A stretch of DNA of 64,000 bases, taken from a bacterium (GTDB lineage Bacteria > Patescibacteriota > Microgenomatia > UBA1406 > GWC2-37-13). The translations under genes were made by a program, and so were the position numbers. The stretch lies in assembly GCA_043798165.1 (NCBI GenBank), contig JAZDOY010000034.1:17778-81777 (forward strand), given 5' to 3'. The notes below the pieces were generated by a model that was not told where the DNA came from, ran no database searches, and saw only the letters and a list, made by a program, of their open reading frames with translations. Positions 20,077-59,989 of this stretch are shown one piece after another (the stretch's first letter is position 1; every line of letters begins with the position of its first letter).

Positions 20077-21183
20077 TTATCTTACCAGGGATTTTACAAG
20101 AGCTAAAATCTTTTCGAATATTACTTCACGGGAAAGAAGTTTTCCGTTCTCTACACATTCAACCATTTTCCAATGTTTATGTTTTTTTGCCAACATAAGA
20201 TACATTTCTTCTGAATTTTTTTGATGATCGAGGCTTTTCTCCGCAATATCCTGTTCGACGCCTTTTTGGAGAGAGCGTTTTCTCATAAGTTCTGCCGCAT
20301 ATTGATAGGGGACATGAAGATATATGACGAGGTTTTCTTTAGGAATTTTATGCACTTTGTATTCCAGTTCATAAATCCACTTCAAAAATTCTCCCCGTTC
20401 CTTTTCTGTTTTGCATTTTGCAGCTTGATGGGCCATGTTGGATGTTGCATAGCGGTTAGCTACAATATAACCTCCTTGTGTTAAAAAATCATCCATTTCC
20501 CGCTTTACAGATGCACGGTCCAGGGCGTATGCAAGGGATGAAAGGTATGGAGATACCTCATCGATTTTTCCAAAATCACCTTTTAAAAATTTTGTTACCG
20601 TCTTACCATGAAACGATTTGTAATACTGAGGGAAGTCCATATATTTAACCGGCATTTTTTGTGATTTAAGGTATTTTACAAGAAGTTCTGCCTGAGTTGT
20701 TTTTCCGGATCCATCTCCTCCATCGATAACAATGAGTTTTCCTTTCCTTTTCTTGATTTTTTCGATATGTTTTATAAAATCACTGAGTTTATTATTGATA
20801 GAGTCTTCGTCATAAAATTCAATAAACAAATTTTCCGATGGATTACCTGCCACCATTGGCGAGATATGATCTTCAAACTTGGTATGTACGAGAGCTAATA
20901 CTGGTTTACCAAGGGAAAGCGCGTACACTATTTCTCCTCCCACTCCGTGGGATGGTTTAGACGTTTCCGCAATAACTAGGTCCGAATCTTCAATGCGTTT
21001 TTGCTGCCGGTCATAAATTTGTTTTGAAGTAAGCTCCTTGTCTTTACTAAGCATTTTTTTGGAAATGATCTGCTGCCCGGAGGTGAGTGTAACCGCATGA
21101 TGCTTGATAAGGTGAATGATGTGGGCGTAAAGCGGAACCAAATCCCCGTTTCCCGAGGTTGATGCAGTAAAATACATTTTCAT
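20077..21183 (-). CDS. fusion protein: DNPH1/nucleoside 2-deoxyribosyltransferase-like N-domain + thymidylate kinase-like C-domain
   Basis: The N-terminal part (MYFTASTSG ... DSDLVIAETSKPSHGVGGEIVYALSLGKPVLAL) parallels the Rcl/DNPH1 pattern YFCGSIRGG ... ADVVVAEVTQPSLGVGYELG. The C-terminal part has the Tmk P-loop IVIDGGDGSGKTTQ, LDRAS and ANRYATSNMAHQ. Confidence 0.7.
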   Translation of the reverse strand: MKMYFTASTSGNGDLVPLYAHIIHLIKHHAVTLTSGQQIISKKMLSKDKELTSKQIYDRQQKRIEDSDLVIAETSKPSHGVGGEIVYALSLGKPVLALVHTKFEDHISPMVAGNPSENLFIEFYDEDSINNKLSDFIKHIEKIKKRKGKLIVIDGGDGSGKTTQAELLVKYLKSQKMPVKYMDFPQYYKSFHGKTVTKFLKGDFGKIDEVSPYLSSLAYALDRASVKREMDDFLTQGGYIVANRYATSNMAHQAAKCKTEKERGEFLKWIYELEYKVHKIPKENLVIYLHVPYQYAAELMRKRSLQKGVEQDIAEKSLDHQKNSEEMYLMLAKKHKHWKMVECVENGKLLSREVIFEKILALVKSLVR

Positions 21184-21202: not shown

Positions 21203-23530
21203 CTAAAGAGTTATTACAGCTCCTTCTGAAATCTTTTTTTCTAGCAGGAGTGTGGCTATTTTGTCTTCAATTTCTTGGGTGATGACGTGTTCCAGATTGC
21301 GGGCGCCGAAAGCAGGGTTGTAGTGTTTTTTTATTATCGCAATTAATGTCTCATCCTTTACTGCTATATGAATTTTATACAAGGAATAGATCATGTTATG
21401 AACCGATGTTGTCATCCTTTTTGCCAAATGAAGGAGTGTGTTGTCCGAAATGGGATTGTACACTACCACACCATCAAAACGATTTAAAAATTCGGGAGAA
21501 TACAATTTATTTTTTATGAGATAGTCAATAAACCCGTCATTATATGCAGGTGTTTGAGGGAGGGGGGCGGTCTCATTTGGGGGTGATTGGTCTTCGCTTG
21601 TGATGACATGGTCTATTTTTTTCAGCAATTGATTTTGCTTGTATATGTAATCTGCCCCCGCATTGGATGTTCCAATAATAATCAAATTTTTGCAATCTAC
21701 CCGTTTACCAAATCCGTCTGTAAAATATCCCTCATCTATCACCGTGAGAAATACATTAATAAGATCCGGATGAGCCTTTTCCAACTCGTCAAGCAACAAA
21801 ACCGCATAGGGTTGTTCACGAATGGCTTTTGAAAGGAGGCCTGGAAGGCCCGATTCAAGTGATCCGATGAGCGATTTAATATCTTCTTTTGATTGGTAGA
21901 GCGACATATCAAAACGAGTCAAGTATGATTCGCTTCCAAAGAATATGGTTGACAGAGCTTTTGCTGTTTCAGTTTTTCCTACACCCGTTGGTCCCAGGAA
22001 AAGAAATGTGGCAAGTGGTTTTTTTCGTTTCCCCAGAAGTATAAATGATCTGCGAATAGCAGCAGAAAGCCTCGTAATCGCTTCTGTTTGGAACACAACT
22101 CTCTCCTCAAGAAGATGTTCAAGTGACAGGAGTTTGTTTCGCATCTCATCTGTAAGACGTGTGGGAATGTGGGTTTTTTCGGTGAGGACAGTGTCAACCC
22201 ATTCAGGAAGAATGGTTGTTTTTTGTGATGGGGAACTTTTTTGTGCCTGTGTATATGCATGGGCTGCTGTTTGATCAAGTAGTTCTATTGCCTTTTCTGG
22301 GAAGGGGATGGAGGTAATGTAAAACTCGCTCTTTTCCACAACAGTTTGACCCGTCTCAAAGGGAATAACCAGAGTGTATTTTGATTCAAATTGAGGGATT
22401 ATATGGAGAATGGTCGATAACGCTTCGTCTTTTGAAATTTCTTTTACATCTATTCGTGTAAAAAGACGATTCATTTTTTCATTCGAAAAAATAAATCGTT
22501 GATAAAAAAATGGAGTGGTAATTCCCACAAACTGTATCGTGCTTTCTCGGCCATATTTTTCCAGAGAACTCGTCAAATCAATACGTCCTTCTCCACCTGC
22601 ACAATATCTATCGATGTTTTCAATTAAGAGAATAACGCGTTCTGCTTGCACTGCCTCTCCCAGTAAATCTTCAAAGAATTGTTCACGCTGCTTTGCATCC
22701 GTATAGATGGTAAGAATTTTTTCCATGTTCAATTTAAGGATACGGTTATATGCTAATTGTTTGCCCGTTTGACCTTCATAAATAAGACGCGCCAATGCAT
22801 CAACTACAGTACGTTTTCCTACCCCCTCTTCACCAACAAGAATAATGTTTGCTTCCTGGGATTTACTGAGGACTTCTTGCATCTCCCTCAACTCATTTTT
22901 TCTTCCCACAACATGCCGCGGAGAAGACTGGTATGATGAACTTGTGAGATCTTCCACATAAGAATCAAGTGTTGGTGTATATCCAACCGCCCAATCTCTC
23001 GCAAGGGGAGGGTAGGAAAATAACACCTTTTTATCCCACCACTTCCTTTCCCTCATTTGTCTTTGCCACAATTCTTCAAACCACTCTGTAACTGCACTGT
23101 TATTTTCTGGTTTGAGGCAATGAGAAGCCAAAAACAACTTTTTTTCTTTGTCTTTTATCTCTACATCTGTCGGTCTGAGTGAATACAATCCAATTTGGAC
23201 AGGAAGAATAATGCAGATAAATAAAATAGTTATAATAGGAAGAGATATAACATATCCGACTTCAAAAATAATACAAAAGGAAATAAGAGAAAGCCGCATG
23301 GACGCTCCAATGAAGGAAGACATAAGGTTGAGAAAAAGGCGATTGAAGTATTCTGAAAAAGAAAACCCCCTCGTTTCTTTTTTTACGACAATATGTTTCC
23401 AAGGATAAAAAAGCGTTTGAAGAAGAGGAGTAAAGGAAAAGAAATAGGGAAAGAATAAAATGAGCGCAGAAATAGCCTCAATATAGTCTCTTATGTACTG
23501 TCTCGCCTGCTGCCGTATGTCTTTTTTCAT
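21203..23530 (-). CDS. membrane-anchored double AAA+ ATPase (ClpA/ClpB-like)
   Basis: There are about 130 aa of N-terminal TM helices. D1 Walker A is GEEGVGKRT and D2 Walker A is GPTGVGKTETAKAL, with LLLDELEKAH as Walker B. No ClpB middle domain is evident. Confidence 0.8.
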   Translation of the reverse strand: MKKDIRQQARQYIRDYIEAISALILFFPYFFSFTPLLQTLFYPWKHIVVKKETRGFSFSEYFNRLFLNLMSSFIGASMRLSLISFCIIFEVGYVISLPIITILFICIILPVQIGLYSLRPTDVEIKDKEKKLFLASHCLKPENNSAVTEWFEELWQRQMRERKWWDKKVLFSYPPLARDWAVGYTPTLDSYVEDLTSSSYQSSPRHVVGRKNELREMQEVLSKSQEANIILVGEEGVGKRTVVDALARLIYEGQTGKQLAYNRILKLNMEKILTIYTDAKQREQFFEDLLGEAVQAERVILLIENIDRYCAGGEGRIDLTSSLEKYGRESTIQFVGITTPFFYQRFIFSNEKMNRLFTRIDVKEISKDEALSTILHIIPQFESKYTLVIPFETGQTVVEKSEFYITSIPFPEKAIELLDQTAAHAYTQAQKSSPSQKTTILPEWVDTVLTEKTHIPTRLTDEMRNKLLSLEHLLEERVVFQTEAITRLSAAIRRSFILLGKRKKPLATFLFLGPTGVGKTETAKALSTIFFGSESYLTRFDMSLYQSKEDIKSLIGSLESGLPGLLSKAIREQPYAVLLLDELEKAHPDLINVFLTVIDEGYFTDGFGKRVDCKNLIIIGTSNAGADYIYKQNQLLKKIDHVITSEDQSPPNETAPLPQTPAYNDGFIDYLIKNKLYSPEFLNRFDGVVVYNPISDNTLLHLAKRMTTSVHNMIYSLYKIHIAVKDETLIAIIKKHYNPAFGARNLEHVITQEIEDKIATLLLEKKISEGAVITL

Positions 23531-23588: not shown

Positions 23589-24320
23589 TTAAAAAAAAGG
23601 AATGATAAGATCAGTAAAAAATGCCTCAACAATCTTATCTTTAACTTCTTGTTTCAATTTTGCTGGTATCTCAGGAGTGAAACATCTGGAACTTATGCCC
23701 TGACTTATGGCCCATGACTCGAATGGGCCATTTTCTTTCTCTCTTTTTTTATGCCGAGTAGTTGCATACCCGTCAGTAAATTTGTATCCCAAGATGGGGT
23801 CATTTGGGTCGTCTATACCATTAAATAGGCCAACACCATTTTTTATCAACTTCTGTTTAAATTTTGTATATAAAGAAGAAATATCCCGGTTTTCATCATC
23901 AGCAAGTTCATCATACATATAAAACTCTCCGAATTCCCAGTCTTCATGAAAAGAAACAACAAGATCAAATTTATTTGACCCGATAATGCTTATCATTGCT
24001 TTTGATTCGTCAGTGGTGCCGTTTACAATAAATCCTCGATTAACATCCTGTCCCATCTTATTATTTCTGGTTTTTTTTTCAACCGCGCTTGGTGTAACAA
24101 TGGGGACAAAAATAAAACTTGGTAAATTTTTAAGATTCAATTTTATAGACTTGCACACAGACGATATTATTTTATATTCGTCTCCATGCATTCCAGAAGA
24201 GATAAATAATCGGGGATTATTACCATAGACAAAATATTCCAGTGTAGCCTGTCTATGGACGGACACTAAAGAACCAACAGACTGGGAACGAAGTAAATTG
24301 AGAGAATAAAAATCTACCAT
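23589..24320 (-). CDS. M14-family zinc carboxypeptidase/amidase-like protein (MpaA-sized)
   Basis: Has the zinc motif SGMHGDEY (HxxE), the substrate motif DVNRGF and a distal His in SFHED. 243 aa. Confidence 0.7.
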   Translation of the reverse strand: MVDFYSLNLLRSQSVGSLVSVHRQATLEYFVYGNNPRLFISSGMHGDEYKIISSVCKSIKLNLKNLPSFIFVPIVTPSAVEKKTRNNKMGQDVNRGFIVNGTTDESKAMISIIGSNKFDLVVSFHEDWEFGEFYMYDELADDENRDISSLYTKFKQKLIKNGVGLFNGIDDPNDPILGYKFTDGYATTRHKKREKENGPFESWAISQGISSRCFTPEIPAKLKQEVKDKIVEAFFTDLIIPFF

Positions 24321-24334
24321 AATTGGGGACGTGT

Positions 24335-24405
24335 GGACCCGGAGGGATTTGAACCCCCAACATCTTCGATGTAAACGAAGCGCTCTACCGTTGAGCTACG
24401 AGTCC
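24335..24405 (-). tRNA. tRNA-Val (anticodon UAC)
   Basis: The reverse complement reads GGACTCG-TA-GCTC-AACGGTA-GAGC-G-CTTCG-TTTACAT-CGAAG-ATGT-GGGGG-TTCAAAT-CCCTC-CGGGTCC-A. Confidence 0.9.
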
Positions 24406-24445
24406 TGATGGGCCCTCCTTCGCTAAAGCTACGGCGGGGCACAGG

Positions 24446-24517
24446 TGGGCGTGGAAAGAATCGAACTTTCGCTCTGTTCTTTATCAGAGAACTGTTTTAC
24501 CATTAAACTACGCGCCC
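24446..24517 (-). tRNA. tRNA-Ile (anticodon GAU)
   Basis: In the reverse complement, the acceptor is GGGCGCG/CACGCCC with one C-A mismatch. The anticodon stem is GTTCT/AGAAC with loop CTGATAA. The T arm is GAAAG-TTCGATT-CTTTC. Confidence 0.88.
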
Positions 24518-24626
24518 TTACCCGTTACCAGCAAAGACAAGTCAAATTATATCAGACCAAGGCCATGTTCGTAAACATTAATTTCCATTAAGCAGGTAGT
24601 AATCGAACAGTAACAGGTAGTTAGTT

Positions 24627-26042
24627 TTAATCTTTAATTGTCCCTTTTAAAGTAGTATCGATGATCTTTCGTAATTCTTGGATGTGTTTTCTTGTTTTTG
24701 CAATAAGAACAACGACAAGAATATGTACGTTTAACATATCCGGATTAGCAAATATAATTCCTGAGTGTTTTTCATGGGAGTAGAGATGATCAGCAAAAAG
24801 AGAAAGACATTTTTGATAGGTGATGGTATGATTTTTTTTAAGAATGATATCTTCAATAAGAGTGTGGTAACTACTGCCATATTGTTCACCAAGAAGCGCA
24901 AGACAAAGCTCATGAAGGTGGGTCCCCCCATTTCTTCTGAGGTTTGCCTCCACTGCATAGATTTCATTATGTTTGCTTCGAATTAAATCAATATCAAACA
25001 CACCTCTATACCCATATTCAGCAAGCTTTTTTCCAAATGTTACGCCCGCATCAAACGTTTTTTTTATTGCGAGATCTGTCATGAGCTCCGGGTATACATA
25101 TATACCGCGGTATGTACACTTATCATTTGCCATAATTTGGTCACACGCGTATGACCCGGACACTTCTCCTTTTGGATTAATATATATTTCAAGACTGGGG
25201 GAGATGCTTTCCGCCTTTTCATTTGCAGGAATCATTTTTTCTATAATGATGATGGGCTCGTTCCACATGTTGTCCTTCAATAAATTCCTCATATATGCGT
25301 CAAACCTTTTTTTGTCATCGGGGAGCATCATGTGATCGACGAGTATTATTCCAATACCCTGCACCCCAGAGTTATATTTAATCACAAACGATTCCCCATG
25401 TTGTTTAAACCACCACGCCGCGTCAATTAACTCCTTTTTATTTTGAGTAATAAACCCCTCCGGGATTTGTACATAGGGAGGGTTATCTGCCTGTGATATG
25501 TGCCATAAATGACGAAACCCCCGCTTTGTATTGAAATAATTAAGAATAAATTGTTTATTTTCTGGTATTGTTTCAGGCGTTTTAAAATGAAGTTCTTTTG
25601 TCTGTAAAAAATGTATTAATTTTTGAAATTGAGGAGTATAACGGTAGGGAATAAGAGATACTCCCGGATTATTCTTAATTACTCGTATGATTTCATTGCG
25701 TAAACTTTTATTGATCCTACAATCTTCTGAGATCGAGTGAGATGGTTTATTGGGACATATATTGAACACATTCTTCCACCCCATAAGAGTTTTTATGTGT
25801 TTAAAATGCGGTCTATGTATGGGGGATGAAGTGATAATAATTTTGTTATCCTTTCCGTAAAGAAGTGCACGGTTGCTGTCTAGCGTATCGTACTTTTTCC
25901 AAAAATCACACTCTTCCTTAGACTTAAGAGAATCATAGCTTTTATAATATCCTTCTAAAATATTAGAGATATAAACTGTTTCTATGTTCTTTTTTGTATT
26001 GGGGGGCTCATCTTCGGACGCATTTTTTTCGTTTTTTTTCAT
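24627..26042 (-). CDS. ATP-grasp ligase paralog 1 (PGM1-like peptide-ligase type, tentative)
   Basis: Has FVIKYNSGVQGIGI (ATP Lys plus Gly loop), the hinge IIIEKMI, and GYRGVFDIDLI...YAVEANLRRNGGTH (the D/E-x-N Mg triad). Confidence 0.7.
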   Translation of the reverse strand: MKKNEKNASEDEPPNTKKNIETVYISNILEGYYKSYDSLKSKEECDFWKKYDTLDSNRALLYGKDNKIIITSSPIHRPHFKHIKTLMGWKNVFNICPNKPSHSISEDCRINKSLRNEIIRVIKNNPGVSLIPYRYTPQFQKLIHFLQTKELHFKTPETIPENKQFILNYFNTKRGFRHLWHISQADNPPYVQIPEGFITQNKKELIDAAWWFKQHGESFVIKYNSGVQGIGIILVDHMMLPDDKKRFDAYMRNLLKDNMWNEPIIIIEKMIPANEKAESISPSLEIYINPKGEVSGSYACDQIMANDKCTYRGIYVYPELMTDLAIKKTFDAGVTFGKKLAEYGYRGVFDIDLIRSKHNEIYAVEANLRRNGGTHLHELCLALLGEQYGSSYHTLIEDIILKKNHTITYQKCLSLFADHLYSHEKHSGIIFANPDMLNVHILVVVLIAKTRKHIQELRKIIDTTLKGTIKD

Positions 26043-26058
26043 GTGTATCAGAACATTA

Positions 26059-27405
26059 TTACTGATTATTTCTATTTGTCAATATCTTTTTTATTATTTT
26101 GTGTAAAGAAAGGGTTTTTTTCTTGTTTTTTTCCACAAGAATATAGGAAAATCCTCCATTCTTAATTACCGACTCAGAATTTATAATAAGACCGGTTTTT
26201 GTTTTTTTACTAAATAAATAAGGGATAAAAAGTTGTTTAATAGCAGAAAATGAAGGTGTAAGCCGGGCGGGCAGATCCATATAGCTACTCAACACATATC
26301 TTTGAGAAAAAAAATATTTTCCAACAATCTTTTTAACCATATAATAAGTATCGGTTCCTCCTGTTGTACGCGTGTTTGATTCGTTTGCATATATTTTTTT
26401 TCCATCGTTGATCATATCGATATCAAACCGCCCTCGATATCCCGCATTTCTATATGTTTTAGCGATCTTCATAGTGATGGCTATTACATCTTTTTTTACT
26501 TTTTTTGTGAATACATCGCGGTGCATTTCCATGCCATAGAATTCGCCCTCTGGAGTTACGATCATGTTGCAATAGTAGGGAAGCTCAATTTTCCCATTTT
26601 GATGAATAAAACATTCTATGCTGGGGTAGGGACTCTTTTTTTCTTTACTGGTATTAATATACGTTTCTAAAATGAGCGGATGTTTTTTAAGATAGGTTTC
26701 TTTATCAAATACTCTTTGTAATTCTATTCGAAGTCTTTCTTTGGTTTTTATTTTATTTTTTCTAAATATATGAACGCCTTGTCCTGCGTTACCTTTATCT
26801 GTTTTGAGAACAATACCGGGTGAAGTTCCAAAAAGAAAAAGGGCATTTTTTTGTGCAGCTTTATAATCGAGCTCAATGCTTCCTGTGGGCATAAGAGGAG
26901 CAAATGATGCACGAAAACCACTTTTGCTCCCGTAATGTGCCACCGTCCACAGATCTTTTTCTGCCGGTGCTTCGGGGATAAAAACAACTACTCCCGCTTT
27001 TTCAAACCTTTTTTTAAGGTCAAATACTTTTTGAGTCATTGCGTATGCATAGAGCGTTAATGATCCTGCTTTTATTGCTCCAGAGAGGATAACTGAAAAT
27101 ATATCTTCGTCATAAGCGATATTGTCGCACATGAAGGGTGTTATTGCCTTTGGGGTTAAGACGGTACACTGAGTGCCGCTCAGTTTTTCAAAATATTCTT
27201 TGAAAGTAAGACCGATACTGATTGGAGAAATAAGGGTAAAAGAAGAAAGAAAAGTATTGACAAATAAAGAACAATCTGCAAACCGATTTGAATCATGAAT
27301 TAATTGCTTTTGATCACTTTTTTTAAACGAAGAAATAAAATCCCACTCGTCTTCAATCGAATTATAAATATAGACAGAAAATGTACCGATTCTTTTTTTA
27401 CTCAT
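26059..27405 (-). CDS. ATP-grasp ligase paralog 2
   Basis: Has IVLKTDKGNAGQGVHIF, the hinge LILETYI, and GYRGRFDIDMI...YANESNTRTTGGTD. The N-terminal motif VYIYNSIEDEWDFIS is shared with paralog 3. Confidence 0.7.
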   Translation of the reverse strand: MSKKRIGTFSVYIYNSIEDEWDFISSFKKSDQKQLIHDSNRFADCSLFVNTFLSSFTLISPISIGLTFKEYFEKLSGTQCTVLTPKAITPFMCDNIAYDEDIFSVILSGAIKAGSLTLYAYAMTQKVFDLKKRFEKAGVVVFIPEAPAEKDLWTVAHYGSKSGFRASFAPLMPTGSIELDYKAAQKNALFLFGTSPGIVLKTDKGNAGQGVHIFRKNKIKTKERLRIELQRVFDKETYLKKHPLILETYINTSKEKKSPYPSIECFIHQNGKIELPYYCNMIVTPEGEFYGMEMHRDVFTKKVKKDVIAITMKIAKTYRNAGYRGRFDIDMINDGKKIYANESNTRTTGGTDTYYMVKKIVGKYFFSQRYVLSSYMDLPARLTPSFSAIKQLFIPYLFSKKTKTGLIINSESVIKNGGFSYILVEKNKKKTLSLHKIIKKILTNRNNQ

Positions 27406-28840
27406 TTTGAAGGAGGCGTTTCATCTCTGTTTCTATTTGATACGCTCTTTTTTTGGTATTTCCAAAAATATTATAAATAAGCTCTCCTTGCTTGATGATA
27501 TTTTCTGATGTGATCATGACCCCCTCCTTTGTTTTTTTATTATAAAGAATCGGTTCTAGGATTTTTTCTATTTTAAAGAAAGTGGGGCGCGAAATACTAG
27601 ATAATTTATATTTTGTTCTGCTAATAACATATGAATCTGAAAAGAAATCTTTACCAATAAGTTCGAGAGCCACCTTGAATACGTCAGTTCCACCGGTATT
27701 TCGCGTGTTTGATTCGTTTACAAATACCTGATTATATTTCGTAGCTATCATATCGATGTCAAAATGTCCACGATATCCTGCAGCAGCATAGCGTTCTGCA
27801 ATATAATACCCCGTGTCAATAATACGGGCAGCAAGTCGTTCACTTAACACATCTTCATGCATATCAATGCCATGAAACGCGCCCTCCTTTGTTACCAACA
27901 TAAGACAATAATAAAGCATGTCTATCTTTCCATTTTTATTTATTCTAAACTCAATGTTGGGAAAACTGCTTCCATTATTGACATCGACATTAATGAGGTC
28001 CTCAATGATAATTGGGTATCTATCCCAATAATCATTTTTATTGAGAATGGTATAAATAGCCTTCTCGCATTCTTTATATACCTTTGGTAAATCGCCGTTT
28101 CGAAATATCAAAACACCATTACCACTACTTCCTTTATTTGTTTTAATTACCACTCCATTATCATTAATATATCTATTTGCAGCAATTTTTGCGGCATCAA
28201 GTTTTCCGACACAAATTACTCCCTCCGGCATAATAAAATCTGGTTCAAGAGCAGTGCTTTGTTGGGCAAGCTGACGAATACCAGATTTACTTCCGTAAAA
28301 ATTTACGGTCCACGCGCAATCAACCTCAGGCGCTTCTGGAGTAACCACATTGATTTTTCTCTCTTTCAGTTTTTCTTTTAAATCAAGGAACTGTGGGGAA
28401 GTTGCATAACTAACGAGGGTAACCCTCTTATATTTTCTCGCTTTTTTTAAAAATCTATTAAACAAAACTTTGTCATTGTAAAAATCTTTACAAATAAGAT
28501 GACAGCCAACTTTTGGAACCAGAATATCAATTTTTGTTGCACCAACTAATCGTTGAAAATATTTTTTGAATTCTGAAGAAATTGGCTTTGGTGAGATATA
28601 AGTAAATTCATTTTCGTCTGCATTTGCAAATAAATAACACTCCGCAGAACTATTACAACCTTCAATTTCTTTTTTTCGTTCTTCTTTATCTGAAATAGTT
28701 GTGATAAATGACCACTCATCCTCAACAACATTATAGATGTATACTACGAGTTCATTGTGGTTTTTTTTCCTCTTCAAGTTTCTTATTCTGGACGCAAGCT
28801 GTCCATTCATTTTTGAAGTGTCAATATTTTCCTCTTTCAT
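27398..28840 (-). CDS. ATP-grasp ligase paralog 3
   Basis: Has VVIKTNKGSSGNGVLIF, the hinge IIIEDLI, and GYRGHFDIDMI...FVNESNTRNTGGTD. It overlaps the next paralog by 8 nt. Confidence 0.7.
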   Translation of the reverse strand: MKEENIDTSKMNGQLASRIRNLKRKKNHNELVVYIYNVVEDEWSFITTISDKEERKKEIEGCNSSAECYLFANADENEFTYISPKPISSEFKKYFQRLVGATKIDILVPKVGCHLICKDFYNDKVLFNRFLKKARKYKRVTLVSYATSPQFLDLKEKLKERKINVVTPEAPEVDCAWTVNFYGSKSGIRQLAQQSTALEPDFIMPEGVICVGKLDAAKIAANRYINDNGVVIKTNKGSSGNGVLIFRNGDLPKVYKECEKAIYTILNKNDYWDRYPIIIEDLINVDVNNGSSFPNIEFRINKNGKIDMLYYCLMLVTKEGAFHGIDMHEDVLSERLAARIIDTGYYIAERYAAAGYRGHFDIDMIATKYNQVFVNESNTRNTGGTDVFKVALELIGKDFFSDSYVISRTKYKLSSISRPTFFKIEKILEPILYNKKTKEGVMITSENIIKQGELIYNIFGNTKKRAYQIETEMKRLLQNE

Positions 28841-28852
28841 TTTTATATAGGT

Positions 28853-28882
28853 ACATTATGATTATTTTCCTCCATTTGTCAA
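28853..28882 (-). promoter_or_regulatory. candidate sigma70-type promoter of the ATP-grasp operon
   Basis: The minus strand reads TTGACA, an 18-nt spacer, then TAATGT. The -10 ends 12 nt before the ATG at 28840. Confidence 0.4.
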
Positions 28883-28904
28883 TAGTAATATTTTTATTCA
28901 CCCC

Positions 28905-28933
28905 TTGACTCTGTTTTTTGGAAGAGGTAATAT
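28905..28933 (+). promoter_or_regulatory. candidate sigma70-type promoter of pepA (near-leaderless)
   Basis: TTGACT, a 17-nt spacer, then TAATAT. The -10 ends 9 nt before the ATG at 28943, and no Shine-Dalgarno sequence lies between them. Confidence 0.45.
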
Positions 28934-28942
28934 AGTTTCACT

Positions 28943-30409
28943 ATGACACCACGGATACGTATACATGAAATATATGTAAACCCCACATCCTTCCACATCT
29001 TCTTTTCACACAGCGGAAAAAATACATTCGCAGATCTCCCCCCAGAGCTTCAAAAACGCATTCAATTTAAAGCGGAAAAAGATGATTTTTCTGGAAAAAA
29101 AAGTGAACTTATCCATATAGAAACTGTTTCAGAAAAAGGGATAGAGCATGTAGTCGTTATTGGTATGGAGGAGGAATCAACGCATGATTTGAAAGTAATT
29201 CGAAGGCAAACGAGCAAGGCCGTTGAGCTTGCCAGAAAAGTTAAGGCACAGGAAATAACGGTGCATGTAAAAACACACACAAAAAAAATACAGGCAATAG
29301 TAGAAGGCATTTATTTGGGTGATTATTCATTTGATACTTTTAAAAGTAAAGAATCTCAAAAAAAACATCCCCACATTATAGATGTATATTTGCTAACTCC
29401 TGAAACTGAAGAAACAAAAAAATCTGTTTCACACGGAATTAAAACGGCTACTGCAGTCCTTTTGACGAAAGACTTAGTCAATACTCCTGCCTCGCATTTA
29501 CATCCAGAAACTCTTGTGGTGCAGGCGAAAGAAATTGAAAAAAAATCGGAGGGGGCAGTCACAGTCACAGTCCTCCAAGAAACAGAATGTAAAAAGGAAG
29601 GGATGGGTGCATTCTTGGGCGTTGCGCAGGGGAGTGAACGAAAGCCTGCATTCATTATCCTTCACTATAAAGGAAGTGGACAGAAAAAATTTGCTTTTGT
29701 TGGTAAATCAATCACTTTTGATTCAGGAGGCCTTTCCCTCAAACCAAGTGAGGGGATGATGGATATGAAAATTGATATGGCGGGGGGGGCTGCGGTACTT
29801 GGAGTATTTGACTATTTAGCATCTCAAAAACCTCACATATCCGCTTTTTCCGACGTTTATGGAGTTTTACCAGCCTGTGAAAATATGCCGTCAGGAAAAG
29901 CAATGAAACCAGGAGATATTGTCACGGCATTAAATGGAAAAACGATAGAGGTATTAAATACAGATGCGGAAGGAAGATTGGCTCTCGCAGACGCACTCGT
30001 ATATGCAGAAACAAAGCTCAAGGCTGATTATATTATCGATATGGCCACACTCACAGGAGCGTGTATGGTAGCTCTTGGCCCAGACCTTGCCGGGTTATTT
30101 TGTAACAATGATATATTTGAAAAACAATATAGTATTTCCGCGCATCTTACCAACGACGATTACTGGAGAATGCCACTCCATAGTGAATATCTGTCTCAGA
30201 TGAAAAGCACACTTGCGGATTTAAAAAATATCGGCGGAGGAAGATACGGGGGAGCAATAACAGCTGCACTATTTTTAAAAGAATTTGTAAAAAAAGCAAA
30301 ATGGATGCATATTGATATTGCGGGACCTGCTCATACGGATAAAAAAGGGGCATCGGGATGGGGAGTTTTATCAGTTATATATTTTCTCGAACAATTTACA
30401 AAAGTATGA
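28943..30409 (+). CDS. pepA: leucyl aminopeptidase (M17)
   Basis: Has the M17 signature NTDAEGRLALADAL and the metal ligand blocks VGKSITFDSGG and DMAGGAA. Confidence 0.92.
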   Translation: MTPRIRIHEIYVNPTSFHIFFSHSGKNTFADLPPELQKRIQFKAEKDDFSGKKSELIHIETVSEKGIEHVVVIGMEEESTHDLKVIRRQTSKAVELARKVKAQEITVHVKTHTKKIQAIVEGIYLGDYSFDTFKSKESQKKHPHIIDVYLLTPETEETKKSVSHGIKTATAVLLTKDLVNTPASHLHPETLVVQAKEIEKKSEGAVTVTVLQETECKKEGMGAFLGVAQGSERKPAFIILHYKGSGQKKFAFVGKSITFDSGGLSLKPSEGMMDMKIDMAGGAAVLGVFDYLASQKPHISAFSDVYGVLPACENMPSGKAMKPGDIVTALNGKTIEVLNTDAEGRLALADALVYAETKLKADYIIDMATLTGACMVALGPDLAGLFCNNDIFEKQYSISAHLTNDDYWRMPLHSEYLSQMKSTLADLKNIGGGRYGGAITAALFLKEFVKKAKWMHIDIAGPAHTDKKGASGWGVLSVIYFLEQFTKV

Positions 30410-38015: not shown

Positions 38016-39743
38016 ATGGGCGAATTGCCGGCATCACTTTTTTTTAATGCATCAATGTTCCTTTTGGTTCCCCTCATAATTGCATATATATTTAAGAGGA
38101 ATAAAATTTCACCTATTGTAGGCTATATGCTGGGTGGGATAATCCTTTCAAATTTTTTTGGAAAATTTACCAATCGTGAAGCTCTCGATAGTTTTGCCTA
38201 TTTCGGCATTTTACTCCTCATGTTTACGGTGGGTCTTGAAACGCAGTTTGACCGTATGATCGCACTTAAGAGATATATTTTTTTGGGGGGATTATTACAA
38301 TTGACACTCTCTGCACTTTTTGTTGGAATCGTAAGTACTTTTTTTGGTTTTAATTTTGTCCAGTGTCTTTTGATCGGTATCGCTCTTTCTTCCTCCTCAA
38401 CTACTATCGTTGCAAAGATCATTCAGGACAAAGGGGAGGAGGGGAGCTTTGTGGGGGAGATGGCCATAGGTATTCTCATGTTTCAGGATCTGGCATTTAT
38501 TCCTTTTATGGCAATTTTCAACTCTCTCACAGGTCAAAATCACAGTGTGTTTCAGGTCGTACAGAAAATCATAATTGACCTTCTCTATGCAAGTTTCATA
38601 TTATTATTTTCCTACTATATGGGGAAACGAATTGCCCCCTATATATTTAATAAATTTGCACTCCTTTCTCGAGAGCTGCTTAATATATTTATTATTCTCT
38701 CGATTTTCGTGGTCGCCTATCTCTCCACACTTTTACACATATCACCCTTTATCAGTATCTTTGTTGCCGGCGTCATTGTGGCACAAACTGCCGAACACTA
38801 CCACATTTTTTCTCAAATACGTCCATTTCGAGATATATTATCCGTCATATTCTTTATTTATATTGGAATGAATATTAACCTTAGAGTCCTCTTTCCCGCT
38901 CTTTTTCCCATGCTTCTTTTTGCTGTCATTGTAATGGTAATCAAAGCTTTTACCATCTTTTTTATATTTACCTCTTTTAAATTTCATTCAAAATTGTCAA
39001 CATACCTCTCACTTTTTCTGTTCCAAATTGATGAGGATGCATTTATTCTCATGTCTGTTGCCTATGCAAACAAACTCTTCACACAGCAGCAATATGTGTT
39101 TGTTATCTCTACCGTACTTATCAGCCTTCTCTTTACTCCCACGTTGATTGCAAAAAAAGAAAAAGTATATAAAGCATTCTGGCATTTCGTTGCCCGTTTT
39201 CTTCCATTTGTTCATACTTATGTAACAAAACGAATTGACCGTGACAAATCCTCCATCGATGCACTGGACATAAAAAACCATATAATCCTGTGTGGATATG
39301 GCCGTATCGGTTCTCATGTAGGACGGGCCCTTCTCTTAGCTGATATCCCATTTGTAGCAATCGATTATAATTTTGCCACGGTTGAAAAAGCAAAAAAACT
39401 AGGGGTAAATATTATTTATGGTGACCCAACCGATATTGATATGCTTGATTATGCAGAAGCAGAGAGTGCAACAGCAATTGTCCTGGCTTTGCCGGATAGA
39501 TTTGCTCAGGAAAGCATAGTCATGAACGCAAAAAGACTCAACAAAAATATTGTCGTCATGAGTCGCGTTCATCGAATTGTCGACCACAAAAGAATGAAAG
39601 ATTTAGGAGTGCACGTTGTAATTCAACCAGAATTTGAAGCATCGCTTTCAATTATAAAAAAGATTATGATGTTAAAAAGAATCAGCAAAGATGACATCAT
39701 AAAACACATTGCATATTTCAAGAAAGAGCACGAAGGAATATGA
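38016..39743 (+). CDS. Kef-type cation:proton antiporter (CPA2) with C-terminal RCK/TrkA-N domain
   Basis: Has about 12 TM helices followed by the Rossmann motif IILCGYGRIGSHVG. Confidence 0.85.
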   Translation: MGELPASLFFNASMFLLVPLIIAYIFKRNKISPIVGYMLGGIILSNFFGKFTNREALDSFAYFGILLLMFTVGLETQFDRMIALKRYIFLGGLLQLTLSALFVGIVSTFFGFNFVQCLLIGIALSSSSTTIVAKIIQDKGEEGSFVGEMAIGILMFQDLAFIPFMAIFNSLTGQNHSVFQVVQKIIIDLLYASFILLFSYYMGKRIAPYIFNKFALLSRELLNIFIILSIFVVAYLSTLLHISPFISIFVAGVIVAQTAEHYHIFSQIRPFRDILSVIFFIYIGMNINLRVLFPALFPMLLFAVIVMVIKAFTIFFIFTSFKFHSKLSTYLSLFLFQIDEDAFILMSVAYANKLFTQQQYVFVISTVLISLLFTPTLIAKKEKVYKAFWHFVARFLPFVHTYVTKRIDRDKSSIDALDIKNHIILCGYGRIGSHVGRALLLADIPFVAIDYNFATVEKAKKLGVNIIYGDPTDIDMLDYAEAESATAIVLALPDRFAQESIVMNAKRLNKNIVVMSRVHRIVDHKRMKDLGVHVVIQPEFEASLSIIKKIMMLKRISKDDIIKHIAYFKKEHEGI

Positions 39744-40639
39744 ACACGATCCATCATAAGACAGTGCTAAAGATTGGCATTTTGCTTTGCGGAGTTGTTC
39801 TTCTTATCATTATTTTACGCCACTTATTTACGTCGGCCTTTTTTGTGAAAGAAGATAGGATAAACATTCTTTTATATTCTTCAGAACCTATCTACTTTTC
39901 CATAGAGCGAGGTGGAGAGGTGCACTACGCAACAACATTTAATGCTGATAGCCGAACAGCTGTGCCTGGAGGGTATGGGGTATATAGAATGGGGGCACTT
40001 GGCAAACTTGTCACGCTCGAAAAGAATCCAGAACTCTTAAAAAGAACTTTTTCTCGTATCACGGGGTCAATGATAGATTATTATTTTTATCCAAAAAGCG
40101 AAGCTATCTATTATGGATCCGATGAGAAGGTGAGATTCCCGTCTTTAAGCGACCTTTTTATATGTGAATCAAACGCTAATTTTTTTGATCGTTTATATAT
40201 TTATTTTCAGTTTGTGGGAAAACATCTGAGCGATTTTGAAGAAATACATATAAATAAAATCCAAACAGGGGAAACGGTCCTTTTGTCTGATGTGACATTT
40301 GCAAGACAGTATTTGGGGTATTTTTATCACAAATCTCTTCGAAAAGAGAATAAAACGGTCCAATTACTCTATACAAACTCATATATCGCTGCAAAAAATA
40401 TGAGCAGAGTTATTGATGGCGAGGGAATACGGGTAGTGGACATTGACGTGACAGAAGACTCAAAAACGAAAGAAGAATACAAAAAAACGGAATGTGTTGT
40501 GAAAGAAAATACCAATAACAATTTTTCTCTTACTGCAGAAGAGATAGCACATTTTTTTCATTGTATACTTAAAAAAGGAAAAGGACGTGTATCAGATATT
40601 GTAATTGAGATGGGAAAAAGGGAAGGGGAATGGGAATAA
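39740..40639 (+). CDS. membrane-anchored protein, degenerate LytR-CpsA-Psr (LCP)-like, tentative
   Basis: Has an N-terminal TM helix. INILLYSS ... DSRTAVPGGYGVYRMGALGKL loosely follows the LCP core pattern. Confidence 0.35.
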   Translation: MNTIHHKTVLKIGILLCGVVLLIIILRHLFTSAFFVKEDRINILLYSSEPIYFSIERGGEVHYATTFNADSRTAVPGGYGVYRMGALGKLVTLEKNPELLKRTFSRITGSMIDYYFYPKSEAIYYGSDEKVRFPSLSDLFICESNANFFDRLYIYFQFVGKHLSDFEEIHINKIQTGETVLLSDVTFARQYLGYFYHKSLRKENKTVQLLYTNSYIAAKNMSRVIDGEGIRVVDIDVTEDSKTKEEYKKTECVVKENTNNNFSLTAEEIAHFFHCILKKGKGRVSDIVIEMGKREGEWE

Positions 40640-45389: not shown

Positions 45390-46514
45390 ATGAAAAACGA
45401 AAAATTTTGTATAAGCAAAAACATTGCGGTTATTTTTTCCGTGTCGCTTCTTTTATTGGCGGTGGTTTTGTTTGCAGGTTATATGAACAAACAAAATTAC
45501 TCAACAACAAGCAAAGCTGCATCATGTAATTGGGACGCAAATACCCTGACGATGTGTAGTGGCGGTATGCCTATTGGAGGTTGTTCTCCATTAAACAACA
45601 AACAATATATTTGTAACGTTAATCCAGTCACATGTAAGGGTGAGTGGCAAGTGGATACAAATTATAGATGTTTAGGCAATAAATACTCATCCTACCTATC
45701 AGGCAATGGTGCGGATCGTGACAAAATAATATTTGCCAGATGTATTGCGGAGGACACTCGTGCATACGTGTTGGCAAATGTGGGCAAAAAATCTACCACA
45801 TCAAAAATTGATGAAAGTTTGAGTAAAGAATCTGCTCAAGAAGCAGCCACAGTTAAAAAAGCATATGAAAACTTTAAGTCCTGCCAAGACATTGATCCAA
45901 TTTCAGGAATTCCAGCGTCTGAAACAGATAAATGTACTGTTGCTGGGGTAGATTATCCAATTGGATATTGTAGTGGCGGTACGGACGGCGCACAATGGGT
46001 CTGTAAACCAAATGGAAACAACTATGCTTTATGGTCAAAGGATGGGTCAAATGCATGTAATTTAGTAAAAACCAATGAAATAAAAAGTAACTGCATGGCT
46101 GCGGGCATGGAGCAAAAAGCAAGTGCTACAGAAAAAACATATCCCCCATGCATGACCAAAAAAGACGCAACATTTGTCGTACAGGGACATTTTAATAGAG
46201 GTGGTTCATCAGGAGCATATAAAATTCAACTGGTAGTTACTCCCAACTATCCTGAGAGTTTATTACCAATGAAGATACTTGCTAAAACAGGTGAAGTAGT
46301 TGTTATTCCCAGTACTGATATGAATGATGCACAAGAGGCAACGGCAGGTTCACTTGGAAGTATCTTTGCCTCTTTGAGAATGAAAATCTGGGAAGGCGCA
46401 ACAAAAGATAATTTCACTTGCACGGTGCGGGTAACGGATGCTATTACCGGCGGAGATGTAGCGGTAAAAACAATCGAGAAGTGTGATCCAAACAAAGTAA
46501 ACACAACACCGTAA
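45390..46514 (+). CDS. secreted/membrane-anchored Cys-rich protein with internal repeat, hypothetical
   Basis: Has an N-terminal signal/anchor (IAVIFSVSLLLLAVVLFAG). Two related Cys-rich modules are present (MCSGGMPIGGCSPLNNKQYICN; CTVAGVDYPIGYCSGGTDGAQWVCK). A good SD sequence (GGAGG) lies upstream. Confidence 0.55.
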   Translation: MKNEKFCISKNIAVIFSVSLLLLAVVLFAGYMNKQNYSTTSKAASCNWDANTLTMCSGGMPIGGCSPLNNKQYICNVNPVTCKGEWQVDTNYRCLGNKYSSYLSGNGADRDKIIFARCIAEDTRAYVLANVGKKSTTSKIDESLSKESAQEAATVKKAYENFKSCQDIDPISGIPASETDKCTVAGVDYPIGYCSGGTDGAQWVCKPNGNNYALWSKDGSNACNLVKTNEIKSNCMAAGMEQKASATEKTYPPCMTKKDATFVVQGHFNRGGSSGAYKIQLVVTPNYPESLLPMKILAKTGEVVVIPSTDMNDAQEATAGSLGSIFASLRMKIWEGATKDNFTCTVRVTDAITGGDVAVKTIEKCDPNKVNTTP

Positions 46515-49632: not shown

Positions 49633-50661
49633 TCAATACTCTGCAGAATAAGAATCAATGAGGTAAGATCCCTGAAGGAAAAGTTGTATCCGATTTTTGT
49701 ACGAAGAAACAACCGATCCACACGACTCAAAATCTACTCCATTATTTGAAAGAGAATAGGCAACTTTATTGCCCTGTACTTCTGCCTTGATAAAGACATA
49801 CAAGTCATCTTTTCCAGAAGCTGTTTGCAAAACCTTTGTTGTGGGTGCATTGTTATTTTTATACAAAATGCATTCATTCATGTGCTTTCCCGTCAGTTTC
49901 AAAGAAGTGGTATTTAACGATAATCGTATTTCTTTGGCATGTTCAGGGATGAGAGAAATTATGACAGATCCTCTCCGCAAGAAAGAAGGGGTAGTGAGGG
50001 TGTAGCTTTCCAGTTCAGGGGACGTGGAGAATAAGTAGGTCCGATCCCCTATTGTCCGCAAGCTCAGCGATTGATTGTGTGTAGAAAAAATATCCGAACC
50101 ATAAATGGTAGTGTTTTCTATCCAAAAGCGATCAAGATTAATCTCGGCAATCGCTTGCGGCTTAGATTTAATTGAAAATGATCTACTTGTAATTTTTTTC
50201 CAGTTAGGTATTGCCACTGGGATACGATTCCATCCGACATGCATCAAAGAAGTAAATGTATATTCCATTTTTTGATCCTTTTCTCCAATGAGATTAAGAG
50301 TGAATGATACAAGCGATGAAAGATTTTGTTTGCCAGGGACATACACACTCAAATACCCATCAACATAACCCGGTGGAAGTATTGTGACCTGATCGCTCTG
50401 AATGCTGTTTTCTTTTCCATACCAGGAGCTGAGTGTAATACTTGTCTTTCCTTCCAAAACACGTTCAGAATCATATGAATAATTTCCCTGCCACTTTTCA
50501 CTTTCTTCAAAACCTGAAAGCTCAATCGTTTTATTATTGCTGTAGTGTTTTGAAAAATCGATGGAAATAAATTGTTTTCGTTGTTCAAGAACAAATATAC
50601 ATATCGCAAGGACGAAAAGGAGGATTCCCACCTGAAATAGTATTTTCTTGTAACGGTTCAT
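49633..50661 (-). CDS. membrane-anchored extracytoplasmic protein, hypothetical
   Basis: Long ORF. The start was set to MNRYKKILFQVGILLFVLAICIFVL (basic N-terminus plus TM helix). A beta-rich extracellular part is predicted by composition only. Confidence 0.5.
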   Translation of the reverse strand: MNRYKKILFQVGILLFVLAICIFVLEQRKQFISIDFSKHYSNNKTIELSGFEESEKWQGNYSYDSERVLEGKTSITLSSWYGKENSIQSDQVTILPPGYVDGYLSVYVPGKQNLSSLVSFTLNLIGEKDQKMEYTFTSLMHVGWNRIPVAIPNWKKITSRSFSIKSKPQAIAEINLDRFWIENTTIYGSDIFSTHNQSLSLRTIGDRTYLFSTSPELESYTLTTPSFLRRGSVIISLIPEHAKEIRLSLNTTSLKLTGKHMNECILYKNNNAPTTKVLQTASGKDDLYVFIKAEVQGNKVAYSLSNNGVDFESCGSVVSSYKNRIQLFLQGSYLIDSYSAEY

Positions 50662-50878
50662 ACCCCTAACTGTAGCATAGAAAAAAAAGAAAATCAAAGC
50701 TAATAGATGTTGTCCCCCTCGTTTTTTCACGTCTATTAACGAGAAAAATATTTTTGATGAAACCAAAATATATATGAGAATTCATAACTCATTTTTGCAT
50801 TAAATTTCCTCAGCCCACAATGACAGCGAAACGATAATGTGTAATAATGTACATATATACAAATTACCAATATACAAT

Positions 50879-58750: not shown

Positions 58751-59989
58751 TTATACACGTAACATTTTTTTTGCATTAATAAGCTTTTTAAATAGCGTGG
58801 TAAGATCGCTTTCTTCATTGTAGATATAACATGATGCTCTTGTTGTTGCAAATGTTCCTAAAATACTCATTAGTGTTTGTGCACAGTGATTTCCGGAGCG
58901 AACACAAATTCCGGATTGATCTAAGATTTGCGCAATATCATGTGGATGTATGCCATTAATGGCAAAAGAAAATATTGCTAAACGATTATCTTCAGTTTTT
59001 GGACCATAAAGAGTAAAATCTTTTTCTTGTTGAAACAGTTTTAAACCATGCTTGACAAGTTTTTTGTCATGATTTTCAACTGCGTCCATTCCTATTGATT
59101 CCAAATATGATATAGCTGCACCTAAGCCAACTACAGCTTCAAGTTTTCCAGTTCCTACCTCAAACTTATCCGGAACATCCGCAAAATCAGTTTTCTCTTT
59201 CGTTACCTTACCTACCATGTGACTACCAACAAAAAGTGGATCCATAACTTCCAACAATTCTTTTTTTGCCCATAATACCCCAACACCACTGGGACCAAGC
59301 ATTTTATGAGACGAAAATGCTAAAAAATCACAATTCAACATTTGAACATCAATCTTCATATGTGGAACCGTTTGTGCTGCATCAACAAGTACCTTTGCCT
59401 GTATTCCCTCTTTTTTCAAAAATGCAACAATTTCTCCTATGGGGTTTATGGTTCCAAGCACATTAGATCCATGTACGATGCTTACAAGTTTTACTTTCTT
59501 AAGATCGATATTTGCCGAAAGAAGAGCCTGGTAATCAAGTCGATAATCTTGGTCAAGGGGTAAAAAATAAAGCACTATCCCTATTTCATCACGAAGACGT
59601 TGCCAAGGAATGACATTTGCATGGTGTTCCATGTCAGTAATAACAACGACATCTCCCTTTTGGAGAAACTTTTTTGCCCACCCTGTGGCAACTAAATTTA
59701 TTGCCTCATTGGTGTTTCCGGTAAAAACAATCTCAGATGAAGAAGAGGCGTTAAGAAATTTTGCCACCTTTGTTCGGACATCTTCATAAGCTGTAGTTGC
59801 TTCGTCTGCAAGTTTATAAATCCCACGATGGATATTAGCATTGGTCGTCTCATAGAATCTGCTTACGGCATCTATTACCGTTTTAGGTTTTTGACTTGTT
59901 GCTCCGGTATCCAAATAAATGAAAGGTCCATTTTTCTTGCGATTAGCAAAAATTGGAAAGTCTTTTTGTATATTCTTTGCGTTGAGCAT
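58751..59989 (-). CDS. sufS: cysteine desulfurase, SufS type
   Basis: Has the PLP Lys block FSSHKMLGPSGVGVL and the catalytic Cys loop VRSGNHCAQ. Confidence 0.92.
   Translation of the reverse strand: MLNAKNIQKDFPIFANRKKNGPFIYLDTGATSQKPKTVIDAVSRFYETTNANIHRGIYKLADEATTAYEDVRTKVAKFLNASSSSEIVFTGNTNEAINLVATGWAKKFLQKGDVVVITDMEHHANVIPWQRLRDEIGIVLYFLPLDQDYRLDYQALLSANIDLKKVKLVSIVHGSNVLGTINPIGEIVAFLKKEGIQAKVLVDAAQTVPHMKIDVQMLNCDFLAFSSHKMLGPSGVGVLWAKKELLEVMDPLFVGSHMVGKVTKEKTDFADVPDKFEVGTGKLEAVVGLGAAISYLESIGMDAVENHDKKLVKHGLKLFQQEKDFTLYGPKTEDNRLAIFSFAINGIHPHDIAQILDQSGICVRSGNHCAQTLMSILGTFATTRASCYIYNEESDLTTLFKKLINAKKMLRV

Follow-up and report, generated by a model that had tools for sequence, protein, structure and literature searches.

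Stand-alone ATP-grasp-fold enzymes that ligate peptides and amino acids are the closest described relatives of three consecutive genes, called here ligA, ligB and ligC, that lie in a 64,000-nucleotide (nt) stretch of DNA from Candidatus Roizmanbacteria, uncultured and ultra-small bacteria of the Microgenomates within the candidate phyla radiation (CPR). This whole stretch is referred to as the window, and all coordinates are given on it. The nearest of these relatives are PGM1, the pheganomycin peptide ligase (PDB 3wvq and 3wvr), and the Streptomyces protein 8ynd, which resemble the trio in their three-domain architecture and match over the full length (template modeling (TM) score 0.70-0.83); the profile similarity spans the catalytic core and the C-terminal domain, and the motif GYRG...D.D...E.N.R..G.T is common to both sides. 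They differ from the trio in that identity is 13-18%, the window proteins fall below every Pfam cut-off, and the window holds neither a precursor-peptide gene nor a biosynthetic-cluster context: PGM1 and 8ynd belong to actinomycete secondary metabolism, whereas the ligase considered here is a conserved CPR core gene.

Two further enzymes, BesA (L-propargylglycine-L-glutamate ligase, 8yi6) and LdmS (L-Asp-L-Met ligase, 7r8p), fall in the same structural clade and share a stand-alone amino-acid-ligase chemistry. As at the window locus, a metallopeptidase gene adjoins that of LdmS: in Staphylococcus aureus the two lie in one operon, and turnover by the HmrA peptidase has been proposed (PMC9486568). 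Unlike BesA and LdmS, the window proteins score far under the corresponding NCBIfam equivalog cut-offs, and nothing connects them with the metabolism of alkyne or sulphur amino acids. A third comparison is with Ddl, the D-Ala-D-Ala ligase, and with Aslfm, which ligates D-aspartate in Enterococcus faecium; both are also ATP-grasp ligases. Ddl-like genes are the conserved genomic partners of ligA, ligC occupies the slot of one of them (Ddl1), and Aslfm offers a precedent for an ATP-grasp enzyme that adds a side-branch residue to a peptidoglycan precursor. However, no member of the trio matches the Ddl family, and the top structural matches of the ligA and ligC models include no Ddl structure; the relation of Ddl and Aslfm to the trio is one of context and analogy only.

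By examining sequence profiles, structure models and the gene neighbourhoods of relatives, we hypothesize that the trio represents a Microgenomates-specific, vertically inherited ligase cassette that builds a peptide of the cell-wall type. We give this whole reading a probability of about 0.4, the wall role being drawn from gene context only.

Enzyme class of the three ligases

The ligase genes follow one another on the minus strand, with the sizes and spacing given in the initial annotation, which was made from the sequence alone:

ligA: 27398-28840, minus strand; 480 amino acids (aa), predicted PGM1/BesA-type ATP-grasp ligase, the constant and most conserved member of the cassette
ligB: 26059-27405, minus strand; 448 aa, paralogue of ligA, in the variable second slot
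ligC: 24627-26042, minus strand; 471 aa, divergent paralogue, in the slot that holds the Ddl-like Ddl1 in most relatives
promoter-like site TTGACA-16-CATAAT: 28855-28882, minus strand; about 14 nt upstream of the ligA ATG, matching the consensus at 11/12 positions only

The start of ligB overlaps the stop of ligA by 8 nt and a gap of 16 nt separates ligB from ligC; the three genes are probably co-transcribed from the promoter 14 nt upstream of ligA. The ATP-grasp motifs that had been read in all three proteins are real. In a 30-sequence family alignment that takes in the three paralogues, the catalytic residues are invariant (K233, G237/G240/G242, E280, D361/D363, E376, N378, R380, G383 and T385 in ligA numbering, including the lysine, the glycine loop, the Mg ligands and the arginine), and they align to the motifs of PGM1, 8ynd and BesA; all three paralogues therefore look catalytically competent. 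An N-terminal VYIYN..EDEW block, noted earlier in two of the three, is common to ligA and ligB, and identity to ligA is 39% for ligB and 26% for ligC.

Standard family models gave little. No Pfam model reaches its cut-off on ligA, ligB or ligC, and among the sub-threshold matches is a weak one to an IQCH-like ATP-grasp family. The PreAtp-grasp (PF18604) and PGM1_C (PF18105) models have no match at E<0.1 in the three window proteins; among the 30 family members they match ten and five, respectively, at E<=0.01. NCBIfam yielded for the trio only far-sub-threshold matches, to LdmS (28.2 against a cut-off of 475), BesA (27.1 against 750) and PRK06524. The Ddl models of both libraries (Dala_Dala_lig_C and the NCBIfam Ddl model) do not match ligA, ligB or ligC, the RimK/TTL models of Pfam and NCBIfam match neither the trio nor the family, and PADLOC found no defence-system match for the ligases or for the neighbouring M14-like protein. 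Single-sequence PDB searches with the trio likewise gave weak matches. With the family libraries below threshold and single-sequence searches weak, the assignment required a profile of the whole family together with predicted structures.

The family profile retrieved PGM1 (3wvq) at E = 3.4e-16, 8ynd (annotated 'ATP-grasp peptide ligase') at 1.8e-14, BesA (8yi6) at 2.9e-10 and LdmS (7r8p) at 9e-5, while the ligC profile came closest to BesA (5.7e-10). AlphaFold (AF2) models were confident, with a predicted local distance difference test (pLDDT) score of 86.7 for ligA and 91.7 for ligC, and they match hundreds of ATP-grasp structures at E<1e-13, indicating an ATP-grasp fold. In Foldseek the top matches of both models are 8ynd, PGM1 and BesA over about 470 columns (ligA: E 1e-21 to 1e-23, TM 0.70-0.83; ligC: TM 0.72-0.83, full length), followed by LdmS and then, at E of about 1e-14, by more generic members of the fold such as PurK, PurD and biotin carboxylase. 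Profile and structure thus agree with the initial annotation, which had noted a resemblance to PGM1-type peptide ligases and had set the trio apart from Ddl, RimK, CarB and PurK: membership in these four families is excluded, and the trio falls in the PGM1/BesA type.

On the strength of the profiles and predicted structures, ligA, ligB and ligC are very likely stand-alone ATP-grasp ligases of this type, for which we propose a cytoplasmic location and an architecture of pre-ATP-grasp domain, ATP-grasp core and PGM1-like C-terminal domain. All database homologues of the trio are annotated as 'hypothetical protein', and we found in the literature no description of the ligase family, of the cassette or of such ATP-grasp ligases in CPR; the graspetide ligases of CPR (PMC8939145) belong to a different ATP-grasp branch. 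The family is a distinct, unannotated subfamily of a known kind of enzyme, and its setting is unusual: it includes a CPR core gene, is coupled to Ddl-like genes and shows a cassette-like turnover of paralogues.

The cassette in Microgenomates and its Ddl-like partners

A scan of one genome per GTDB species found 79 loci, all in Microgenomates-type CPR (Roizman-, Gottesman-, Chisholm-, Pace- and Wirthbacteria), and a representative library contained 313 clusters at E<1e-30 and 1889 at E<1e-3. The closest homologues come from Candidatus Roizmanbacteria (91% identity for ligA), ligC being 100% identical to a metagenome-assembled genome (MAG) protein at NCBI with locus tag V1922_03715; across Microgenomates the ligA orthologues are 50-94% identical. 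When 106 non-redundant family proteins were clustered, 79 fell in the ligA clade, 12 in the ligB clade and 8 in the ligC clade, and the others in three further second-slot types with 4, 2 and 1 members. The ligB clade occurs in 12 loci only, other relatives having a different paralogue type in the second slot or none, and ligB is 43-68% identical in genomes in which ligA is 79-92% identical. For ligC there are 85 homologues, in Roizmanbacteria, WWE3 and others. The cassette is a set of two to five ATP-grasp ligase genes with ligA as its constant core, a variable second slot, and either Ddl1 or ligC in the last slot. The order ligA-ligB-ligC is found in the window and in two other loci (L007 and L014; loci of the survey are cited by L numbers); the arrangements with Ddl genes include Ddl2-ligA-Ddl1, ligA-Ddl2-Ddl1, ligA-Ddl1, ligA-ligB-Ddl1 and Ddl2-ligA-ligB-ligC, and the cassette architectures occur with varied flanks and orientations.

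The conserved partner of the cassette is a Ddl-like ligase, which the initial annotation missed and which is absent from the window. A Ddl-like ATP-grasp gene (Pfam Dala_Dala_lig_C) lies within 7 kb of ligA, and mostly adjacent to it, in 54 of 86 loci; it is found upstream, downstream or on both sides of ligA and in at least five different flanking contexts. Two types can be told apart, both below the curated cut-off of 243 bits for the NCBIfam Ddl subfamily: Ddl1 scores 165-179 bits and keeps H63, R255, E270 and N272 of DdlB, with Y216 replaced by W, and Ddl2 is more divergent (96-121 bits) and optional in the cassette. Searching from the side of Ddl1 led to the same association: provided that the flank is present, every Ddl1 of at least 62% identity has ligA next to it. 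As a separate observation, tandem pairs of two different Ddl-like genes, one keeping the catalytic residues of DdlB apart from the exchange of Y216 for W and the other far more divergent, are widespread in CPR, with or without ligA (metagenome loci L129-L158; L057, L058, L059, L103, L125).

Ddl1 and ligC appear to exclude each other. Ddl1 is present in none of the nine ligC loci (the window, L007, L008, L011, L014, L017, L025, L065 and L093), four of which have only Ddl2, and ligC is present in none of about 130 loci that contain Ddl1. One comparison is direct: L057 (Ddl2-ligA-Ddl1) and L065 and L093 (Ddl2-ligA plus ligC) have flanks in common and differ in the last slot only. Of the top 120 homologues of Ddl1 (identity of 60% or more), none shares a contig with ligC, contigs of 1.14 Mb and 291 kb included, and many share one with ligA; a metagenome scan found no Ddl1 in ligC genomes, the scan and the contig comparison being non-exhaustive.

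Several records of the survey stand apart. Some Roizmanbacteria have two ligA copies (L019 6962-13318; L099), 76% and 71% identical to the window ligA and separated by ligB and a gene for a C45 Ntn-hydrolase/acyltransferase. A distant family member in Synechococcus sp. PCC 7336 (WP_017324101.1, 'hypothetical'; L092 6423-10683) lies between a gene for a 441-aa unannotated protein and a radical-SAM gene, a neighbourhood which suggests small biosynthetic clusters as the setting of the family outside CPR. Locus L040 (7710 bp) is a perfect-looking inverted duplication, Ddl1-ligA-ClpB-like and its mirror image, and is most likely an assembly artefact. Many 'binchicken'/SRP co-assembly MAGs titled 'uncultured Gammaproteobacteria' or 'Pseudomonadales' (L012, L014, L017, L022, L025 and others) have the typical gene order of Roizmanbacteria/Microgenomates, and Ddl, YkuD and Amidase_3 occur in a record under the title 'Bathyarchaeia archaeon' (L055); such titles look like placeholders or misassignments.

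The flanks of the window cassette comprise the following genes, among them the two tRNA genes and the divergent pepA described in the initial annotation:

tRNA-Ile(GAT): 24444-24517, minus strand; syntenic neighbour downstream of the cassette
tRNA-Val(TAC): 24333-24405, minus strand; syntenic neighbour
M14-like open reading frame (ORF): 23589-24320, minus strand; 243 aa, MpaA/AstE-like M14-fold zinc amidase or carboxypeptidase by weak matches, a lineage-specific accessory neighbour
ClpB-like double-AAA+ protein: 21203-23530, minus strand; conserved syntenic neighbour, not functionally implicated
pepA, M17 leucyl aminopeptidase: 28943-30409, plus strand; divergent from ligA

The gene order of this block (PMT-like, CBS and pepA on one side; the ligases, tRNA-Ile, tRNA-Val, ClpB-like and Tmk/Ndt on the other) is kept in many Roizmanbacteria, and in 26 related loci the Ile-GAT/Val-TAC pair, in one orientation or the other, is found no more than 600 nt from the ligases. 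Within the neighbourhood ligA is the most conserved gene, at 88-92% identity in relatives where pepA is at 63-79% and the ClpB-like protein at 66-73%. The initial annotation had estimated a guanine-plus-cytosine (GC) content of 25-30% for the trio, against 40-55% in the pyr operon and the aminotransferase gene, and had proposed an acquired island. The GC estimate is wrong: the measured values are 34.1%, 34.1% and 35.9% against a mean of 38.2% for the window genes (standard deviation (sd) 2.9; z = -0.8 to -1.4), and in codon usage most window genes deviate more from the window average than the trio does. A repeat search found no att-like direct repeats, the only repeats being the motif-coding stretches of the paralogues, and Pfam found no integrase among the neighbour genes. 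With typical composition, no integrase or att repeats, and synteny, including the tRNA pair, kept in relatives, membership in a genomic island was rejected. The cassette is inherited vertically and is specific to Microgenomates.

In several separate lineages the cassette stands directly beside stable-RNA genes whose identity differs per lineage: tRNA-Gly-TCC plus 5S rRNA, tRNA-Ile-TAT, or 16S rRNA (L057 9473-9706; L065 9744-10799; L093 3768-3884 and 7523-7593; L003 13302-14810; and just after ligA in L068, L074, L077 and L078). This adjacency may reflect just a shared location in a conserved housekeeping region.

Possible function in cell-wall peptide synthesis, and alternatives

By analogy with the family, which supports this step strongly, an amino acid or peptide would have its carboxylate phosphorylated by Mg-ATP to an acyl-phosphate; the carboxylate would be anchored by the invariant arginine of the E-x-N-x-R-x-x-G-G-T motif, and a second amino acid or peptide would attack the acyl-phosphate with its amine, forming a peptide or isopeptide bond. 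In LdmS an acidic residue binds Mg, and the catalytic arginine anchors the carboxylate substrate and stabilizes the acyl-phosphate (PMC9486568); the E-x-N-x-R segment of the trio corresponds to these two residues. Because the cassette is tied to Ddl-type genes and, sporadically, to peptidases of the murein-peptide type, its most likely job is on a cell-wall peptide. It may carry out the stepwise synthesis or extension of a short peptide containing D-amino acids, either at the stem terminus or at a side branch or cross-bridge as by the enterococcal D-aspartate ligase, and in the window genome ligC would stand in for Ddl1. Neighbours of a cell-wall flavour are the MpaA-like M14 gene (window and L012), an S66 LdcA gene (L093), YkuD and Amidase_3 (L005), GlmS and an LCP protein.

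Background on the lineage is compatible with such a role. ATP-grasp ligases that build D-amino-acid cross-links have a precedent (PMC2922099), and CPR envelopes are considered Gram-positive-like, with sortase near-universal in Microgenomates (PMC6744442). Microgenomates have been reported to have essentially complete peptidoglycan pathways (PMC7143001), and ligA would therefore add to the Mur ligases and not replace them.

Several points weigh against this assignment. It is drawn from gene neighbourhood alone, and the characterized relatives PGM1, BesA and LdmS act in secondary or amino-acid metabolism and not in wall synthesis; the distant cyanobacterial homologue adjoins a radical-SAM gene, and the analogy with D-aspartate ligase would be functional only. 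When the 64-kb window was searched by tblastn with Ddl-like proteins, C45 proteins and alternative paralogues, neither a Ddl nor a C45 gene turned up, and Pfam found no Mur or other peptidoglycan-synthesis gene among 20 other window ORFs. The surveyed loci are phylogenetically related, and locus counts are therefore not independent events. In more distant Microgenomates (Gottesman- and Pacebacteria-type, ligA at 50-54%) there is usually no Ddl within 7 kb and the neighbours are generic housekeeping genes, and in some lineages a Ddl2-Ddl1 tandem occurs without ligA. The mutual exclusion of ligC and Ddl1 is suggestive and holds at the level of locus and contig, whole ligC genomes not having been scanned for Ddl.

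A more specific version of the cell-wall reading is speculative and, in our view, rather unlikely. It holds that ligC is a non-orthologous replacement of the D-Ala-D-Ala ligase in some Microgenomates, supplying a possibly altered stem dipeptide, and that ligA is a hitherto unrecognized, lineage-wide wall-peptide ligase that adds a conserved residue to the stem or to a side branch.

Should the cell-wall reading hold, Microgenomates, a large uncultured branch of CPR, build part of their peptidoglycan peptide with PGM1/BesA-type ligases, a family so far recorded only in natural-product pathways of actinomycetes and in a single dipeptide ligase of staphylococci. These enzymes may, in some genomes, also have displaced Ddl, an essential enzyme and the target of D-cycloserine. 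Such a finding would bear on the wall makeup of CPR, on the antibiotic sensitivity of epibiont versus host and on role swapping among ATP-grasp enzymes. Even without a pathway assignment, ligA is of value: it belongs to the core genes of a major lineage, is highly conserved and completely unannotated, and has been modelled in structure with confidence.

The alternative that survives best, and one that we hold to be possible, is that the trio are synthetases of the L-amino-acid-ligase type whose product has nothing to do with the wall: a di- or oligopeptide free in the cytoplasm, serving as metabolite, osmolyte, storage compound or signal, that would be turned over by neighbouring peptidases such as pepA and M14. 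The dipeptide ligases BesA and LdmS are among the closest characterized relatives, the LdmS gene shares its operon with a metallopeptidase gene (PMC9486568), no precursor or carrier gene is present, and a peptidase of some family often stands beside the cassette: M17 in 19 loci, C45 in 7, C39-like in 3, M14 in 2 and S66/LdcA in 1 (L093), a cluster related to the C39-like proteins lying beside Ddl in three Pacebacteria-type loci. The families involved are, however, inconsistent. The pairing of M14 and pepA around the ligases, on which the initial annotation had built its idea of a peptide-building and trimming module, is not conserved: the M14-like gene is found in the window and L012 (47% identity) only, and pepA adjoins the cassette in 19 of 86 loci, all of one syntenic Roizmanbacteria subclade. 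What stands of that idea is the frequent presence of some peptidase (M17, C45, C39-like, M14 or S66). A free peptide would also leave unexplained the recurrent, rearrangement-resistant linkage with Ddl and the exclusivity of ligC and Ddl1 in one slot, and ligA, being conserved to a very high degree, suggests a core product and not an accessory one.

It is improbable that the trio are protein-tailing ligases of the RimK/TTL kind, acting on C-termini or side chains with M14 and M17 trimming the tail, as had been offered among the initial options. The chemistry of ATP-grasp enzymes is compatible with tailing, an M14-type carboxypeptidase gene beside ligases recalls the TTL/CCP pairing, and there is the weak match to the IQCH-like family; but no RimK/TTL family is matched, the structural neighbours are small-molecule and peptide ligases, M14 accompanies the cassette in two loci only, and no conserved candidate target gene is adjacent.

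Nor do we expect, with odds about as low or marginally lower, that the trio act as PGM1 does on the N-terminus of short ribosomal peptides in a natural-product pathway resembling those of peptides made by the ribosome and modified after translation (RiPPs). PGM1, which links a non-proteinogenic acid to ribosomal peptides (PMC8939145), and 8ynd are the best matches in sequence and in structure, the identity to PGM1 being only 13-18%. Yet a small-ORF scan found no free ORF of at least 20 aa in the intergenic gaps (at most 110 nt) in or beside the cluster, in line with the earlier remark that no precursor gene was visible; there are no tailoring, export or immunity genes, the neighbours being of housekeeping type, and the gene is core and highly conserved, not patchy.

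Least credible of all, and largely refuted, is a horizontally acquired, tRNA-targeted island of trio and M14 with a peptide-building and trimming module: tRNA genes do adjoin the cluster, its GC content is slightly under the window mean, and the second and third slots differ between close relatives, but the GC deviation stays within about 1.4 sd with typical codon usage, integrase and att-like direct repeats were not found, the tRNA pair and flanking gene order are kept in dozens of related species, and ligA is the most conserved gene of the neighbourhood.

Flanking genes and minor observations

The M14-like ORF starts 12 nt past tRNA-Val, and the motifs cited for it earlier (H45-G-D-E48, N94-R95-G-F and F-H125-E-D) are all in the translation; H45/E48, N94-R95 and H125, together with a C-terminal FTPE, provide the set expected of M14-fold zinc peptidases (zinc ligands in HxxE and a distal His, an N-R pair that binds carboxylate, a catalytic Glu) and align to the unnamed metallopeptidases 3ieh and 3b2y. 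Its family scores are marginal (Pfam AstE_AspA_cat 25.4 bits against a cut-off of 25, Peptidase_M14 13 against 21.6, NCBIfam MpaA 27.8 against 157), and the PDB matches to 3ieh, 3b2y and MpaA are all weak. The protein resembles the branch of M14 formed by MpaA (murein tripeptide amidase) and AstE-AspA in its 243 aa, its HxxE...NR...H...E set and its weak but consistent matches, and differs from it in that the scores are marginal and the gene is not conserved with the ligases.

The product of pepA is recognized as M17 by Pfam (Peptidase_M17, 394 bits) and by the NCBIfam leucyl aminopeptidase model (451 against a cut-off of 432). The region between ligA and pepA, estimated initially at roughly 100 bp, measures 102 bp and carries the promoter-like site ahead of ligA; a second such site lies at 24575-24546, ahead of tRNA-Ile. 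Rfam searches found no riboswitch or T-box. The CBS-domain ORF, as called mechanically, overlaps the end of pepA by 52 nt (30358-30409); because this overlap is only 4 nt in relatives, the true start probably lies further downstream.

In 42 loci the ClpB-like gene stands next to the cassette, on one side or the other. Its 775-aa product carries two AAA+ modules but, instead of a Clp N-domain, a hydrophobic region at the N-terminus, and matches the PADLOC models DolB and PDC-M37B, probably through generic AAA+ similarity. Beside it in the window (20077-21183, minus strand), and in 37 related loci, lies the gene for a 368-aa fusion of nucleoside 2-deoxyribosyltransferase and thymidylate kinase, possibly a nucleotide-salvage specialization of reduced genomes.

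Elsewhere in the window, Pfam matched none of several ORFs with 300-370 aa (45390-46514, 49633-50766, 39740-40639 and 62602-63519). The minus strand also encodes a B12-binding radical-SAM protein (61017-62453) and a class-V aminotransferase (58751-59989), and a low-GC (31%) gene at 1244-1876 on the plus strand encodes a pentapeptide-repeat protein.

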